Under the pieces are notes generated by a model. That model searched no databases. It was not told the origin of the DNA and was given only the letters and a program-made list of their open reading frames with translations. Source: a virus (taxonomy: Duplodnaviria; Heunggongvirae; Uroviricota; Caudoviricetes). Taken from it: a stretch of 26,180 bases of DNA. Position numbers and translations under genes: made by a program. Shown in pieces: positions 1 through 7,403 of the stretch; position 1 is the stretch's first letter, and the number at the start of each line of letters is the position of its first letter. Location of the stretch: positions 1 through 26,180 of the IMG/VR virus record IMGVR_UViG_2698536580_000004; one strand, 5' to 3'.

Positions 1-873
1 TCAGTCAGATAATCTGGGGCGAAGTGAGCATATGTCATTGTTTGCTCGATTGTTGTATGACCCAAAATACGCTGTAGCGTGATGATATTCCCTCCGTTGA
101 TCATGAAATGTGTTGCGAAGGTATGGCGTAAAACATGCAGTATCGAACAATTTCCCCGATTTGCGTGTAAGGATGTAGTCCGCGATTTCCTTCGATATCG
201 GAACAGTACGAGCTGGGCCGGTTTTGGTCTTAACAAAGGTCACACGGTTACTTATCACGTTTTCAGCTTTAAGATTACTGGCTTCACCCCATCGTGCTCC
301 TGTATTCAGGCAAAGAACGACAACTCTGCGATCATCCCCTGTAAGGGCATTCAGCAAATGGTGGATCTCTTCTTCGGACAGAAAGGACATTTCTGTGTTT
401 TCCAGACGTAACTTCTTCACGGCGCGAAACGGGTTTTCGTGATGAAATTCTTCCATATCTATCAGCAAACTGAACATGCTGGACATGGAACAGAAATCCC
501 TGTTTACCGTGCCAGCGGACACTCCACTATGAAGTCGTTCTGCACGATATTTCATCAGAAAGTTGCGGGTAAGCTCGTACACTCTGGGTTCGGCCATTTC
601 GCGGTTGATTTTTTCCAGACGCTTTTTATATGAGTCACCATAGTTGTGATTCTTTCCATGGTAGCTCCACCATAAAGAAATTAACTCGGATACAAGCCTC
701 CTGTCTGCGGGTTTGTCCTGCCATTCTTTATCGTGAAAGTTTGTCAGTACATATCGCTCGTATGCCTGTGCTTCCGCCTTTCTGTCAAATTTGCGTCGAA
801 TCCTTCTTCCTGTGGTTCCGCGCGGTCTAACGTCCACTTCAAAACGACCATCATCAAGCTTCTTAATCGACAT
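1..873 (-). CDS. int: tyrosine integrase (P2-like), 3' part disrupted; annotated frame stops at window position 1
   Basis: ORF-track frame encodes box-I-like NTGARWGEASNL and FVKTKTGPARTVPIS. Start at ATG 873 (MSIKK) is preceded by GGAGGG 7 nt upstream; the track start at 900 is an alternative. The catalytic box II is in another frame (see findings). Confidence 0.7.
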   Translation of the reverse strand: MSIKKLDDGRFEVDVRPRGTTGRRIRRKFDRKAEAQAYERYVLTNFHDKEWQDKPADRRLVSELISLWWSYHGKNHNYGDSYKKRLEKINREMAEPRVYELTRNFLMKYRAERLHSGVSAGTVNRDFCSMSSMFSLLIDMEEFHHENPFRAVKKLRLENTEMSFLSEEEIHHLLNALTGDDRRVVVLCLNTGARWGEASNLKAENVISNRVTFVKTKTGPARTVPISKEIADYILTRKSGKLFDTACFTPYLRNTFHDQRREYHHATAYFGSYNNRANNDICSLRPRLSD

Positions 874-939
874 AGCGAAGCCCTCCGATGTATGAATCAT
901 TATGTAAATTTTGCGCTAACGCATAGAAAAACCAGATGT

Positions 940-1248
940 TTAGCCAGTTTTTCGGGGTGAACGGGATGATGTTGTGTTGTCGTGCCCATCAGGGGAGAGA
1001 GACGGGGATACCTGCCCCGCGCTCGGTGCTGTCTTATCTGTCATTAACCAGAGTGTGTATTTTTCGAATCGTGGGTGTTTTAGTATCACATCAATAATTG
1101 CTAGCCCTGCCTCTCTTTGGCCACTTTCATAGTTTTTAACCGTACTCAAAGCAATGCCAATCATCTCCGAGAAGGATGATTGCGTTAGCCCTTCAGCCTT
1201 CCTGATTTGTCGCAATTTCTGAGCATGAGTCCTTGACGAGGTATTCAT
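940..1248 (-). CDS. C: immunity repressor, P2 C-type (HTH)
   Basis: 102 aa; C-terminal half (KYTLWLMT...SPRKTG) and length resemble the P2 C repressor as I recall it; divergent from the cox-like gene. Confidence 0.7.
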   Translation of the reverse strand: MNTSSRTHAQKLRQIRKAEGLTQSSFSEMIGIALSTVKNYESGQREAGLAIIDVILKHPRFEKYTLWLMTDKTAPSAGQVSPSLSPDGHDNTTSSRSPRKTG

Positions 1249-1349
1249 GTGTAGACTATCCTTGCGTTAGGTCTTCCGCGGAAGACCAAAACAAACCCTA
1301 GAACGACTTAAAGCGCCCTAGGAACCCAAACTAACGGAGGATACCACAG
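1249..1349. promoter_or_regulatory. lysogeny/lytic switch region with divergent promoters and candidate operators
   Basis: 101-bp gap between divergent repressor and cox starts; perfect 18-bp palindrome GGTCTTCCGCGGAAGACC at 1270-1287; direct repeats CCCTAGAAC (1296-1304) and CCCTAGGAAC (1316-1325) 20 bp apart; GGAGG at 1336-1340 before cox ATG 1350. Confidence 0.55.
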
Positions 1350-1631
1350 ATGAAGGAACCAGCAGAAAAGGCGCTTTCAGAGTTGGTGACCCCTGAGCTT
1401 TTTGCCGAATATATAGGCAAAACGCCTGCTGCAATTCGCAAAATGGCCACGGCTGGAAAACTGCCGGTAATCCGCATGAAAGACCCTCTAAATCCATCAA
1501 AAAAAGGTGGGGAAATCTATATCCATCGGGGGGAATGGGATGCTTATGCCCTTCATTTGGCTCAAATTGCCCCGCCTGAATGGCATGACTGGAAGAACCG
1601 TTTATTCACGAAAGATAAAAGTGCTCGTTAG
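1350..1631 (+). CDS. cox: Cox-like excisionase/transcriptional regulator
   Basis: 93 aa; motif FAEYIGKTPAAIRKMATAGKLPVIRMKDP matches the P2 Cox pattern (...GKLPVI.M.DP); position divergent from the repressor. Confidence 0.7.
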   Translation: MKEPAEKALSELVTPELFAEYIGKTPAAIRKMATAGKLPVIRMKDPLNPSKKGGEIYIHRGEWDAYALHLAQIAPPEWHDWKNRLFTKDKSAR

Positions 1632-1657
1632 TAAACTAAATATTATTGGGGATTATC

Positions 1658-1993
1658 ATGAAGACTAAATACGCCACTCTTATTCGTAACCTGTTGCAGA
1701 GTTACCATGCTCAGGCAAACGCTATTGAAAAAGAAACGTTCTCTGTCCATAGCGATGGCTTGCAGTTAATGGAATTGAATATCCAGCTTGCGAAATGTCT
1801 TGAGGGAATTACTTCTACTGCCCGTTTTAATAACGACAGTGATGATTTTGAAGAGTTGCACAAGATTACGCTTATGGTGTTTGGTGGGAATATACCAACT
1901 GAAAATAAAATTTCCGGCCTTATGTCGCTTGCTACCACAGCGTTAAAAAGTAATAACTCGCATCTTAAATCTGTTGCAGCTTCCCAACGTTAA
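1658..1993 (+). CDS. hypothetical early protein
   Basis: ORF-track frame 1646-1993 begins at TTG; first ATG at 1658 (MKTKYAT) has a GGGGA-type SD a few nt upstream. No motif recognised. Confidence 0.5.
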   Translation: MKTKYATLIRNLLQSYHAQANAIEKETFSVHSDGLQLMELNIQLAKCLEGITSTARFNNDSDDFEELHKITLMVFGGNIPTENKISGLMSLATTALKSNNSHLKSVAASQR

Positions 1994-2002
1994 GGAGCCG
2001 AT

Positions 2003-2572
2003 ATGAAACATTTAATGATTGACCTTGAAACAATGGATAATAAACCGACTTCTGCGATTGCTTCTATCGGTGCTGTGTTCTTTGACCCTGAAACTGGCGA
2101 AATGGGTGAGCAGTTTTATCAACGTGTCAGCCTGGGCAGTTGTGTAGGCCACGGTCTCACTATGGGTTCAGAAACCGTATTATGGTGGATGCGTCAGGAT
2201 GCCGAAGCGCGTAGCGAGCTGCTTAATGATGATTGCCTGGACTTGCCTCTGGCTTTAGCGAATCTGGAAGCCTTTATTACTGAGCATTCTGACCCATCTA
2301 AAGTGCAGGTATGGGGGAATGGTGCGGCGTTCGACAATGTTATTTTACGTAATGCATCAGATAAATGCGGGTTTGCCGATCCACTTTGGTACTACTGGAA
2401 TGACCGTGATGTAAGAACGGTTGTTGAACTTTCAAAAACACTTGGGCTGAATGTTCGTAATATTATTAAGTTTGATGGTGTTAAACATCACGCTTTATAT
2501 GATGCCATTCATCAGGCTAAAGTTGTTTCTTATGTCTGGATGTACCTTGTAAAAATAGCTAGTGTGAAATGA
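2003..2572 (+). CDS. DEDDh-family 3'-5' exonuclease (DnaQ/RNase T-like fold)
   Basis: 189 aa; N-terminal MIDLETMD (Exo I, D-x-E), mid NGAAFD, C-terminal HHALYDA (H-x4-D) fit DEDDh exonuclease motifs; strong SD AAGGAG before the ATG. Confidence 0.7.
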   Translation: MKHLMIDLETMDNKPTSAIASIGAVFFDPETGEMGEQFYQRVSLGSCVGHGLTMGSETVLWWMRQDAEARSELLNDDCLDLPLALANLEAFITEHSDPSKVQVWGNGAAFDNVILRNASDKCGFADPLWYYWNDRDVRTVVELSKTLGLNVRNIIKFDGVKHHALYDAIHQAKVVSYVWMYLVKIASVK

Positions 2573-2793
2573 CGATGCTTACAGTGACCTCTCATGCAAG
2601 TGAAAGTGTCATAGCAAAGGCATTTTCTGTGCTGACGGAATATTACAGCGGCAAAAAAGTATATCAGGTTATAAAACCGCATCATTATTTTTCTGTGCAT
2701 GTCTCTTATCGCTGGCGATTATTGAGTAAAGATAGGGGGCGGCATTGGGAGTTAATGACGCATGAGCGATATAACAAACAATACCGAATATAG
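2569..2793 (+). CDS. hypothetical protein
   Basis: 74-aa ORF whose ATG overlaps the exonuclease stop (ATGA); no motif recognised. Confidence 0.4.
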   Translation: MTMLTVTSHASESVIAKAFSVLTEYYSGKKVYQVIKPHHYFSVHVSYRWRLLSKDRGRHWELMTHERYNKQYRI

Positions 2794-2831
2794 TTTTTTG
2801 CCTTTTATACCTTTCTACATCTGGATTAATT

Positions 2832-5489
2832 ATGAATGCCACAATACAGCAGGACGTTGTGCGCCGGCTCGTTCAGGATTTTGAATTTAAAGAACGGGAT
2901 AAATATTTGCAGCAGGGCGTTTGCCCTAAATGCCATAAACGCGAATTATTCACCAGTATAGAAAAGCCCTGGATACTGAAGTGCGGCCGTGAAAACAACT
3001 GCGGCCATCAGGTCGTTGTCAAAGAGCAGTATCCTGAAATCTTTGAGGACTGGTCTAAGCGGTACCAGGACACCCCTGAAACCCCACATGCCGCTGCTGA
3101 GGCGTACCTGCGTGAGGCGCGGGGGCTGGATACTGAACCGCTAAAAGGTTGCTTTACTCAGGGCGCGTTCGTGAAGGATGGCATGGGGTCGGCAACGGTC
3201 AGATTTTCGCTGTCATGCGGTGCAACATGGGAGCGCATCATTGACCAGCCGCAGCGCTTTGGTAAGCAGAAAGCGAACATCAGAGGCAGCTATGTTGGTC
3301 ACTGGTGGGTTCCGCCTTCTGTGAACCTGCTGGAAGTGGATGAAATCTGGATCACTGAGGGAATCTTCAACGCACTGAGTCTGTGCCAGGCAGGGTTTCC
3401 TGCAGTTGCCACACTGAGCAGTAACAACTATCCGCTGGCCGCACTGGATTCGCTGGCCAAAGAACTGGGTGAAAAACCACGTCCACGTCTTGTATGGGCG
3501 TTTGACGGCGATAAAGCCGGCACAAAGCACACGCTGGCGTTCGCTGCCCGTAGTGATGCTGCAGGATGGAAAACCCGTGCCGCGCAGCCGGTGAAATCAT
3601 CGGCATCGCTGGACTGGAATGACCTGTTGTTACGTAACCGGTTCAGTAAGTCGGACATTAAAAATTATCGCTACTATGGCGATCTCCTTCTGGCAAAAAG
3701 CCCGACTGAGAAAGCCCTTCTTATGCATCAGCACAATGAATGGCACTCGTTTTATTTCGAACATGGTTCCCGCATGTACTGGTTTGAGCTGGATCTGGAC
3801 AGGTACATGCGAGCCTATGAGCGCATCACCAATACCGGTACCGAAGTGGTGATGGAGTGGGAGGCAAAAGAACGGGCGGTTAAAGAGTCAGGCGGTGTGA
3901 CCGAAATTGCCAACTGCTGGCTGACGCCGCTTTATTTCCAGCGGTCTGAACCTACAGACGAGTCCTGGTATTACGTGAAGGTCAGTATGCCGAACCGGCC
4001 AGCCGTGAAAGATACTTTTACGGCTAATCAGCTCACCAGTTCCGCCGAGTTCAAAAAGCGTCTTCTGCATATCGCCAAGGGGGCGGTGTATACCGGCAGT
4101 ACCAAACAGCTGGATAAGTTCATCCAGATGCGCCTCCCTGAAATCAAAGAAGTTAAGACGCAGAATTTCATTGGATACAACAAAGATTATGCCGCCTGGC
4201 TATTTAACCGTGTGGCCGTGTGTGATGGCCGGCTGTATGAGATGAACGACGAGGATTATTTCGAAATCAACAGCGCCAGCGTTAAGAGCCTGAGCCTCAC
4301 GCCGGCGCTGGATCTGAATCCGAAGCTGAACGAATTCACCACGGGCTGGGTTGACGATATCTGGACAGCGTTTGGTGAAAAAGGGTATGTGGCGCTGGCG
4401 TTCTGGCTGGGGTCGCTGTTCGCTGAGCAAATCCGGGAGCGTGACAAGTCATTTCCGTTTCTGGAAATCGTGGGCGAGCCGGGGACAGGTAAATCCACGC
4501 TGATAGAATTTCTCTGGAAGCTCGCCGGCCGTGAGGAATACGAAGGGTTTGATCCTTCTAAATCAACAGCCGCAGCGCGTGGACGCAACTTTGCCCAGGT
4601 TGGCAACCTTCCGGTTGTGCTGATTGAGGGCGACCGCACCACGGATAACGCTAAACAACGCGCTTTTGACTGGGACGAGCTGAAATCACTGTATAACGGT
4701 CGTGCCTCCCGTGCCGTGGGTATCAAATCGAACAATAACGAGACGTATGAGCCGCCATTCAGGGGAAGCATTGTGATAGCGCAAAATGCCGACACAGACG
4801 GCAGCAAGGCCTTTCTGGAGCGTATCATCCACATCTATACCGACAAGCGCGGCCAGTCCATTCAGACCCGCTACGCCGCCGAACGGCTTGAACAGATACC
4901 CGTTAGTCAGGTATCCGGGTTCACACTGCTGGCCACCATGCGTGAAAAAGAAATCATGAAGGTGTTCGGTCAGGGCTACGAACGCGCCCGTAGTGAGCTG
5001 GAGTCCAATACCAGTATTCGCCATATTCGTATCGCCAAAAACCACGCGCAACTGGTTGGTCTGCTGGATGCGCTGGCGTTGGTTGTACCAGTACCGATGG
5101 AACGTATTGAGAAGACCCGCGATGCAATTACCGCGCTGGCCGTGGAACGGTGTCAGGCGCTTAAAAAGGATCACCCTCTGGTGCAGGAATTCTGGGAGCT
5201 GTTTGATTACCTGGATGAACTTGCACCTTATGGCATCAATCATTCATCAGATGAAAATGAAATCGCGGTTAACTTCAATCACATGGAAGAGGTAGCCGCA
5301 GCACACCGGCAGCGTATTCCGTTCACATTAACGGAAATTAAAAAGCTGCTTAAAAACGGTAATGAACGGCGGTTCATCAGACAAAGTACCACGCGCAGCG
5401 CGGTAAGTGAGCGCCATAATCGTGGTAAAGGGGATATGCAACGGATGCCGGAAACATTCCGCTGCTGGATATTTAATAGAGAAAAGTAG
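2832..5489 (+). CDS. replication primase-helicase (zinc ribbon + TOPRIM + P-loop NTPase; P4 alpha-like architecture)
   Basis: 885 aa. N-terminal CPKCHKRE...LKCGRENNCGH zinc ribbon; TOPRIM-like WITEG (Glu) and WAFDGDKAG (DxD); Walker A GEPGTGKST followed by VVLIEGD. Confidence 0.75.
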   Translation: MNATIQQDVVRRLVQDFEFKERDKYLQQGVCPKCHKRELFTSIEKPWILKCGRENNCGHQVVVKEQYPEIFEDWSKRYQDTPETPHAAAEAYLREARGLDTEPLKGCFTQGAFVKDGMGSATVRFSLSCGATWERIIDQPQRFGKQKANIRGSYVGHWWVPPSVNLLEVDEIWITEGIFNALSLCQAGFPAVATLSSNNYPLAALDSLAKELGEKPRPRLVWAFDGDKAGTKHTLAFAARSDAAGWKTRAAQPVKSSASLDWNDLLLRNRFSKSDIKNYRYYGDLLLAKSPTEKALLMHQHNEWHSFYFEHGSRMYWFELDLDRYMRAYERITNTGTEVVMEWEAKERAVKESGGVTEIANCWLTPLYFQRSEPTDESWYYVKVSMPNRPAVKDTFTANQLTSSAEFKKRLLHIAKGAVYTGSTKQLDKFIQMRLPEIKEVKTQNFIGYNKDYAAWLFNRVAVCDGRLYEMNDEDYFEINSASVKSLSLTPALDLNPKLNEFTTGWVDDIWTAFGEKGYVALAFWLGSLFAEQIRERDKSFPFLEIVGEPGTGKSTLIEFLWKLAGREEYEGFDPSKSTAAARGRNFAQVGNLPVVLIEGDRTTDNAKQRAFDWDELKSLYNGRASRAVGIKSNNNETYEPPFRGSIVIAQNADTDGSKAFLERIIHIYTDKRGQSIQTRYAAERLEQIPVSQVSGFTLLATMREKEIMKVFGQGYERARSELESNTSIRHIRIAKNHAQLVGLLDALALVVPVPMERIEKTRDAITALAVERCQALKKDHPLVQEFWELFDYLDELAPYGINHSSDENEIAVNFNHMEEVAAAHRQRIPFTLTEIKKLLKNGNERRFIRQSTTRSAVSERHNRGKGDMQRMPETFRCWIFNREK

Positions 5490-5520
5490 GAGGAAAGTTC
5501 TATGTGTGATTGCTTAAAAC

Positions 5521-5778
5521 ATGTCGGTAATGCAGTTAAAACTCGTCTGCTTGAAAAAAGTACCTGAAGGAGCGGAAGTATTTGAGGGATTCGAGACGGG
5601 GTGGGATAACTCTGTATTTTTTCTTTCTAGTGGTCGTATTCATGTAAATATGCGCTATAAGATGGCATTCAGGGCGAAAAAGAAAAATGGTGACATGGCA
5701 AAGAACCTTACTCATCTGGAGTGCAGTGTTGCGATGGCATATTGCCCGTTTTGTGGTGAAAAAGAGAACGCCTTATGA
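5521..5778 (+). CDS. hypothetical small protein (coding status uncertain)
   Basis: 85-aa ORF in the AT-rich segment after the primase gene; no SD at its ATG; contains a T-rich low-complexity stretch; C-terminal CPFCGE. May instead be non-coding (possible cos region). Confidence 0.3.
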   Translation: MSVMQLKLVCLKKVPEGAEVFEGFETGWDNSVFFLSSGRIHVNMRYKMAFRAKKKNGDMAKNLTHLECSVAMAYCPFCGEKENAL

Positions 5779-6026
5779 AACAGGATTATTATTCGTATGA
5801 GGAATTGCTGATGGGGATGTTTAATATCGGTGATGAACTTTATGAAACGACTGATTTTGATGAACTGACGATGGAACATTTTGAAGTCAGTTTTGAGCAG
5901 TTTGCTAATATTGTCGATGCCTTATTGCCATTTACAGCTTTGGTTTGCTCTCCTTTAAGTGGAAGAAATTATCACGCATTTCTTAAAGATGGCATTGCCT
6001 TTATTAAGACTGAGGCCAGTGTGTAA
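5775..6026 (+). CDS. hypothetical small acidic protein
   Basis: 83-aa ORF, ATG overlaps the stop of the upstream ORF (ATGA); followed immediately by a terminator hairpin. Confidence 0.4.
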   Translation: MKQDYYSYEELLMGMFNIGDELYETTDFDELTMEHFEVSFEQFANIVDALLPFTALVCSPLSGRNYHAFLKDGIAFIKTEASV

Positions 6027-6032
6027 AAAGTA

Positions 6033-6055
6033 AGGCACCAGTTGGTGCCTTTTTC
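6033..6055. terminator. bidirectional rho-independent terminator between convergent genes
   Basis: Hairpin AGGCACC-AGTT-GGTGCCT (6033-6050) followed by TTTTC on the plus strand and preceded by AAAAAG (T-run on the minus strand); sits between the stops of convergent genes. Confidence 0.7.
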
Positions 6056-6384
6056 TAAGCAGCTGCTGTGCCGTCCTGACTTAAAAACTTGAGCATCAGC
6101 TGTTTTTGCTGCATATCAAGGCTGTTGCAGATAGTGGCGATCAACGCATCGCAGGATTTGGCGCTGGGGCTGATGGTATGTGAGAATGTCATATTCATCA
6201 CAAAAGTGTGACCACATTCAACATCGGTACACGCACAATATAAATCCGACAGTTCCTTGTGTTTTCGGGCTGTTTTTTTGATAACAGCCCTTGCCTCACA
6301 TACCGGACAGTAAACCTTCATTACCCGCATATCCATCGCTCCGGAAGTTGGAAAACGATGATATTTTAGCCTTTTTGCGGACAT
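6055..6384 (-). CDS. ogr: Ogr/Delta-like zinc-finger late-gene transcriptional activator (extended)
   Basis: CPVC-x20-CAC-x4-C with HTF after the last Cys, matching the P2 Ogr four-Cys arrangement; 109 aa as called, possible internal starts (MDMRV or MKVY); first ATG overlaps the portal stop (TAATG). Confidence 0.65.
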   Translation of the reverse strand: MSAKRLKYHRFPTSGAMDMRVMKVYCPVCEARAVIKKTARKHKELSDLYCACTDVECGHTFVMNMTFSHTISPSAKSCDALIATICNSLDMQQKQLMLKFLSQDGTAAA

Positions 6385-7403
6385 TAATCACCTTCCAGCT
6401 CACTGTCTTTCAGGAAATTAAGGTACAGGTGGGGCGGTACATCACTTTCCTGTTCCACTGCGGCGGTAAACATGCGCTGAATGGGCAAAATCTCTGCTTT
6501 GCGGTAGGTTTTGGCCGCTTTCTCAACATCTCCCATTACTGCGCCGTTCGTCGGGATAATCCCCGCCAGTCCTGCCGGGAATCGATGCGCGGTCAGTACG
6601 TCCTGGGCGCTGATGCTCTTGATGTTCTGAAACTCATCTTTGGCGCTGATATCACCAATCGGGATAAATTTGATGCCGTCCGGATCGCCTTTGGGGATGT
6701 TCACAAACATGGTGCTGAAGTTCCCGATCCCCTTTGACTGCTCCAGCTTCTGAATAATTTCTTCTTCCACTTCATCAGTCATATTTGGGTCGTTACAGTA
6801 GATCATACCACCTGTGTGTCCGCCGTTATGGTAGTAACGCCGACGAAAAATTGTTGCCTCACCGTTAAGCAGGGCAGAATGGATACCGCTGATATAATCT
6901 GGCAGACCATAAATCGCCTGTTGCGGATCGTACTGCCTGAGAAAAATAATATCTTCAGGCGGATAAATCATCGGTTCACCCTGCTGCAGTACCACAAACT
7001 CCCCGGTCTTACGCTGGCGGGTATAGAGTGCCGGCAGCGGGTACAGTGCCACCACATCCCCCCAGCCGTTACGCACTTTCAGAATGGCCACATCACCGAA
7101 GGTCAGCCAGTCGAACACGGCTGCACCAAGCTGTTCATGCGTCAGTCCGCCGTCTTTATAGTTTGCCGTCACCATATTGCGACGGGCATACAGCACACCG
7201 CCGTGCTGCGCGTTCAGGTTCACCAGTTGCGCCAGCGCCAGCCGGTCAATCGGGAGCGTCCAGTGTTCCGCTTCATTGTCATACCAGACGTCTGTGTAGT
7301 TTGTGCCGGTCGTCAGAATGGGTTCCGGTTTACCCAGGGTAATAAGGCTCATATGGCGCGGCTTGCTGGCGGTGCGGCGTTCCCTGTATTTCCGTTTTTT
7401 CAT
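6384..7403 (-). CDS. Q: portal vertex protein (P2 gpQ-like)
   Basis: 339 aa; block YGLPDY...LLNGEATIFRRRYY...DGIKFIP...KDEFQNIK is typical of P2 Q portal proteins; adjacent to and co-oriented with the large terminase. Confidence 0.85.
   Translation of the reverse strand: MKKRKYRERRTASKPRHMSLITLGKPEPILTTGTNYTDVWYDNEAEHWTLPIDRLALAQLVNLNAQHGGVLYARRNMVTANYKDGGLTHEQLGAAVFDWLTFGDVAILKVRNGWGDVVALYPLPALYTRQRKTGEFVVLQQGEPMIYPPEDIIFLRQYDPQQAIYGLPDYISGIHSALLNGEATIFRRRYYHNGGHTGGMIYCNDPNMTDEVEEEIIQKLEQSKGIGNFSTMFVNIPKGDPDGIKFIPIGDISAKDEFQNIKSISAQDVLTAHRFPAGLAGIIPTNGAVMGDVEKAAKTYRKAEILPIQRMFTAAVEQESDVPPHLYLNFLKDSELEGD

Follow-up and report, generated by a model that had tools for sequence, protein, structure and literature searches.

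In phages of the phiCTX, RSY1, Smp131 and Evevirus branch, the place that belongs to gene A in P2 is taken by a gene listed as 'DNA primase' or 'bifunctional primase/helicase', and this is already recorded in databases and taxonomy. Phage 186 uses a homologue of A, and satellite P4 replicates by the theta mode. The literature search found no biochemical or genetic work on any member of the family concerned (PHROG 1139, or the phiCTX orf37 family); Smp131 orf39 is called merely 'DNA primase-like' (PMC3931495). In the α protein of P4, origin binding is mediated by a winged helix at the C-terminus, and helicases of the DUF927 group fused to DnaG primases have been proposed to be phage replicative helicases (PMC4889955). 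The SaPI Reps, which are self-loading, use a C-terminal winged helix to bind iterons (PMC9371898), and SaPIbov1 Rep has a relative in Cch (PMC7581432).

The whole stretch of viral DNA analysed here, 26,180 nucleotides long and referred to below as the window, contains a member of the PHROG 1139 family. The gene at 2832..5489 (+ strand) starts with ATG and encodes a product of 885 aa followed by a stop codon. The PHROG 1139 ('DNA primase') profile matches this protein end to end (E = 0, 1242 bits; residues 3-884 of 885 against profile positions 2-890 of 895), and a database search found more than 2186 homologues, the best matches being mostly proteobacterial. The amino acid identity is 95.5% with the 'DNA primase' gp29 of Escherichia phage ESSI2_ev239 (Peduoviridae, Evevirus), and 47%, 41% and 39.5% with RSY1 ORF47, phiCTX orf37 and Smp131 orf39, respectively, all four being homologous over the full length (Smp131 is known here from one tblastn row alone). 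The ESSI2_ev239, RSY1 and phiCTX members are of equal length and are encoded at the same early-operon place of a P2-like phage as the sole large replication gene, with no substantial difference between the family and the window protein. A primase-helicase in place of P2 A is already known at the annotation level in phiCTX-type relatives. NCBIfam profiles gave the dnaG domain alone, below the threshold, and the PDB sequence search with the protein and the family profile gave weak DnaG TOPRIM matches and no helicase match.

A promoter-like site at 1233-1262 is followed on the + strand by a Cox-like gene (1350-1631), a gene of the early operon without an assigned function (1646-1993), a gene of an Rv2179c-like 3'-5' exonuclease (2003-2572) and a ParE-like ORF (2569-2793), the Cox-like, exonuclease and ParE-like assignments coming from PHROG and Pfam matches. 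These upstream genes (1350..2793) stand in the same order in Salmonella and E. coli relatives. A stem-loop where the early operon and ogr converge (6032..6051, sequence AAGGCACCAGTTGGTGCCTT) was reported by the terminator scan on the - strand only, with the T tract after ogr; on the + strand it is followed by TTTTCT, and it is likely that the early transcript ends there too. Between cox and this terminator, 2832-5489 is the only ORF longer than 200 aa, as had been claimed in the original prediction, which was made from the DNA sequence. The ORFs at 1646-1993, 5521-5778 and 5775-6026 encode 83-115 aa and vary between relatives, and the unassigned early ORFs match no Pfam family at E 0.01. What follows the primase-helicase gene differs between ESSI2, STK78-E and the Salmonella prophage, each having other genes in that slot. 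In all relatives examined (ESSI2_ev239, phiCTX, RSY1, and Salmonella and E. coli prophages), the early operon has the primase-helicase gene at the same position.

The genes around this operon are of P2 type. In addition to an integrase, the window encodes Phage_Cox and Ogr_Delta proteins, a portal, a terminase and an HTH repressor that shares 39% identity with P2 C. In relatives and in the source contig, which is identical, the genes for the GPO scaffold, the P2 capsid and the small terminase come next. This supports the P2-like head genes and the P2-type switch proposed earlier. The integrase of the window prophage is disrupted, and the prophage may therefore not be inducible. No significant match was obtained with P2 A, P2 B and P2 orf80-83 in a tblastn search of the whole window. 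The 885-aa protein has no match to Pfam Phage_GPA / HUH, while the same tool gives P2 A itself a Phage_GPA match of 1.8e-124, and the comparison of the family profile with P2 A by hhalign gave a probability of 0.4%. A hidden homologue of P2 A was rejected on the basis of the hhalign and tblastn results. These absences, together with the strong primase and helicase signals, bear out the claim that the gene does not encode an HUH rolling-circle initiator. Since homologues of P2 A and B are absent from the window while int, C, cox, ogr and the head genes are of P2 type, the suggested mosaic, with a primase-helicase at the place of P2 A in a P2-type genome, is also supported.

The zinc ribbon, TOPRIM glutamate, DxD and Walker A motif GEPGTGKST that had been noticed in the translation are all present, and 51 homologues (48-93% identity) aligned for motif conservation keep them with little or no variation. 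The N-terminal zinc ribbon (2889..3017, + strand; residues ~20-62, beta strands in the structural model) has the form C31-P-K-C34 ... C51-x5-C57, with all four cysteines invariant in the alignment, and Pfam zinc-ribbon models match it weakly (E 0.03-0.3). It is followed by the DnaG-type RNA-polymerase domain (3027..3731, + strand; residues ~66-300), whose fold, comprising the N-subdomain and TOPRIM, is present in the protein. The Pfam TOPRIM region (residues 172-268, nt 3345-3635) scores above the gathering cut-offs of both Toprim_3 (E 7.9e-11; 42.7 bits, cut-off 27.2) and Toprim_2 (E 2.9e-10). The TOPRIM Glu is E176, within WITEGIFNA, the DxD is D225-G-D227, within WAFDGDKAG, and an additional acidic motif is formed by D261-W-N-D264. 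Position 227 is D in 30 of the 51 sequences and G in 21; nine of the latter have D or E at 226, and twelve (DNG, DTG) keep D225 alone in the triplet. The beta-rich N-terminal tier of the helicase module (3732..4331, + strand; residues ~301-500), which has no Pfam family, leads to the AAA+ ATPase core (4332..4931, + strand; residues ~501-700), containing Walker A (G548-EPGTGKST-556, nt 4473-4499), Walker B (VVLIEGD, 595-601), the putative sensor-1 N652 and the putative arginine finger R664. E176, D225, D261, G548, G553, K554, T556, E599 of Walker B, N652 and R664 are invariant in the 51 sequences as well. The C-terminal helical and winged-helix domain (4932..5486, + strand; residues ~701-885) contains the winged helix at ~782-885 (nt 5175-5486), which is the predicted origin-recognition domain. 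The motif and profile matches are far beyond chance. Judging by the sequence and the model, the N-terminal third appears to be a DnaG-type primase, with a Cys4 zinc ribbon and an RNA-polymerase domain bearing the TOPRIM metal centre, and would act as such.

The TOPRIM region also gave weak PADLOC matches to the DnaG-like domains of defence-associated reverse transcriptases (E 3.7e-7), and defence cargo is indeed carried in P2-like early regions (PMC13586616). Such observations would fit a TOPRIM-ATPase serving inter-element conflict, in defence or anti-defence, and not replication. This explanation is hardly credible, as the PADLOC matches are confined to the generic TOPRIM domain, the gene keeps its place in every relative examined whereas cargo slots vary, no other replication initiator was found in the window, and the model predicts the full three-tier architecture of a replicative helicase. 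A defence function was rejected, since PADLOC gave generic TOPRIM matches alone.

In the AF2 model of the 885-aa protein (mean pLDDT 88.5), three tiers were found, an N-tier, an AAA+ core and a winged-helix C-terminal domain. The closest folds by a wide margin are Cch and SaPIbov1 Rep, at a sequence identity of just ~12%. The Foldseek search with this model gave Cch at E 3e-16, SaPIbov1 Rep at 7e-12, the DnaG RPD at 5e-6 and the T7 gp4 primase at 6e-5. The winged helix matches the C-terminal domain of SaPIbov1 Rep with modest scores. Pfam DUF927 does not match the protein and matches one of the 51 homologues, at 9.2e-5. DUF5906, a family of the SF3 group, matches the protein at 22.8 bits (E 1.5e-4), below the gathering cut-off of 27.6; it is also matched in 21 of the 51 homologues and, at 2.5e-9, in P4 α. 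The helicase class is based on the predicted structure, because DUF927 is not matched and the weak sequence signal points to DUF5906. On this basis, the C-terminal two thirds of the protein look like a hexameric AAA+ helicase in three tiers, belonging to the Cch / SaPIbov1-Rep class, which is MCM-like and self-loading.

The DUF5906 signal, shared by the window protein, its homologues and P4 α, could also mean that the protein is a true member of the P4 α / poxvirus D5 family, consisting of a DnaG primase, a D5-type SF3 helicase and a Pox_D5 C-terminal origin-binding domain. The domain order is collinear with that of P4 α, the domains start at similar positions, and the TOPRIM regions are homologous (hhalign probability 86%, E 5e-6). 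Sequence clustering by Kazlauskas et al. put the DUF927 group within SF3 (PMC4889955). However, the TOPRIM region is the only one that aligns with P4 α in hhalign. Zn_Ribbon_Prim (PF08273) has no match at E <= 1 in the 885-aa protein and matches P4 α at 1.9e-18 with the same tool, D5_N (PF08706) has no match either (P4 α, 4.7e-12), and Pox_D5 (PF03288) was not detected by the Pfam search. Thus, of the profiles relevant to the original prediction, TOPRIM was found above the threshold, but Zn_Ribbon_Prim, D5_N and Pox_D5 were not. With DUF5906 below the gathering score and a fold closest to Cch and SaPIbov1 Rep, the helicase is not clearly of the D5 type. The proposed P4-α-like architecture therefore holds for the collinear domain order and the homologous TOPRIM but not for the helicase half as a clear D5-type SF3 module. 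A full-length P4 α structure is absent from the matches of both searches; the sole P4 α structure known to us is that of its C-terminal origin-binding domain. Membership in the D5 family seems rather unlikely, and the assignment to the Cch / SaPIbov1-Rep class is preferred.

An origin within or next to the gene, which had been anticipated, was not found. A repeat search of 1-6500, exact k-mer clustering and mismatch-tolerant clustering compared with shuffles over the entire window revealed no iterons above chance. The repeat-cluster scan works, because P4 ori and crr, used as a positive control, were found by the same script. Two groups at 2850-3130, CAGTATCC (three copies) and CAGGGCGTT (four copies), were rejected as an origin, being only at the shuffled maximum. 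The sole candidate lies outside the window, in the source contig, CXYI01000055.1 of GCA_001268825.1, which is tied to the window by exact matches of two window proteins with the correct spacing. It comprises 12 copies of TGTGAYGNTT in 270 bp, 657-927 bp past the right end of the window (L010 7361-7631; 17 pattern matches compared with 6.8 ± 2.5 expected, 12 of them within the 270 bp). Inside the window, the pattern is not enriched (15 matches compared with 13.6 expected, none perfect). All six copies of the left half are on the - strand and five of the six in the right half on the + strand, and an AT-rich block is situated inside the left half. The cluster sits between the last tail gene and an acyltransferase cargo gene near attR, ~21 kb from the primase-helicase gene. 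ESSI2_ev239 and an E. coli prophage share its region at 96% identity, the DNA of the primase gene being 88.7% identical. An E. coli satellite-like island with a homologue 51% identical has a cluster of similar layout but of a different repeat, TGTAACCG, in at least 12 copies (L006), and in the whole phiCTX genome the sole outstanding repeat cluster is AAGGTAAT, present eight times between attP and cos. Judged by its sequence, the TGTGAYGNTT cluster is the best origin candidate. It could also serve packaging or another function, because its region probably also holds cos.

The lack of a detected origin beside the gene, the modest scores of the winged-helix assignment and the presence of early ORFs without an assigned function (1646-1993, 5521-5778 and 5775-6026) leave room for another explanation, by which the protein gives fork functions only, namely unwinding and lagging-strand priming. 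The initiator would then be a small nickase among these ORFs, host DnaA or transcription, and rolling-circle replication could persist. This is very unlikely. No Phage_GPA signal was found in the window, the unassigned ORFs have no Pfam family at the cut-off given above, and, unlike an essential initiator, they are small and variable among relatives, as is the slot 3' of the gene. In addition, the closest structural relative, SaPIbov1 Rep, is both an initiator and a helicase according to its PDB title and PMC9371898, with Cch as its relative (PMC7581432), and iteron clusters accompany three diverged family members.

It is probable that the gene encodes a single-polypeptide replication initiator, in which a DnaG-type primase is joined to a helicase of the Cch / SaPIbov1-Rep class, and that theta replication starts from a distal iteron origin. 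The gene order suggests that the early promoter beside the C/cox switch would transcribe the primase-helicase gene. The winged-helix domain would recognise the short iterons at the phage origin. By analogy with SaPI Rep, Cch2 and P4 α, hexamers would self-assemble there, open the AT-rich DNA beside the iterons and unwind it, with no need for P2 B or for the host proteins DnaA and DnaC, and the tethered primase may lay RNA primers for the host DNA polymerase III. Primase, helicase and origin-binding activities are all expected of the window protein, the helicase polarity predicted for an AAA+ motor of the Cch-like kind being 3'->5'. The outcome would be theta-type replication to monomeric circles, as in satellite P4, in contrast to the site-specific nick and rolling circle of P2 A. 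The P2 terminase packages monomeric circles.

The replacement is a clean case of module exchange in temperate phages and holds no surprise for specialists. The link to the MCM-like Cch and SaPIbov1 Rep, predicted from the model, would tie a family of more than 2000 homologues to helicases whose study has so far been confined to staphylococcal elements. The predicted origin is a concrete candidate and has counterparts with different repeats in phiCTX and the satellite-like island. A broader idea is more tentative, its chances being somewhat short of even: phiCTX-type Peduoviridae and a group of P4-like E. coli islands may share one replicon, built from a protein in which a DnaG primase is joined to a self-loading helicase of the Cch-like (MCM-like) kind, together with a distal symmetric iteron origin near cos/attP, recognised by the fast-diverging winged helix of this protein, the iteron and the protein co-varying. 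If true, it would provide a one-protein system, tractable in E. coli, for studying how MCM-like origin melting is coupled with bacterial-type priming, and replicon modules would be exchanged between phage and satellite.

Compared with known systems, the gene shares with P2 A the early-operon slot and a broadly similar product size (761 aa in P2, 885 aa here), but the two proteins are unrelated and have no Pfam family in common, and the helicase-loader partner P2 B is absent from the window. In the T7 gp4 / Twinkle primase-helicases, the gp4 helicase is a RecA-fold SF4 (DnaB-like) motor of 5'->3' polarity, whereas the motor of the window protein is AAA+. P4 α, like the window protein, is one chain running from a zinc ribbon through a TOPRIM primase, an N-tier and a P-loop ATPase to a C-terminal DNA-binding domain. 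Its TOPRIM is homologous, the DWND motif included, it is likewise associated with P2-type packaging, and the P4 origin iterons are distant from the gene, as is the candidate origin here. However, the helicase N-tier, ATPase and C-terminal domain of the window protein have no significant sequence match to P4 α, the α-defining families Zn_Ribbon_Prim, D5_N and Pox_D5 are absent from it, and its fold resembles Cch more closely than it does the D5-class helicases. In Cch2 and the SaPIs, the origin lies directly downstream of the helicase gene (rep in the SaPIs), whereas nothing repeat-like adjoins the window gene, from which the candidate origin is separated by ~21 kb. A fused primase is lacking in Cch and SaPIbov1 Rep, and the window protein carries one of DnaG type at its N-terminus.

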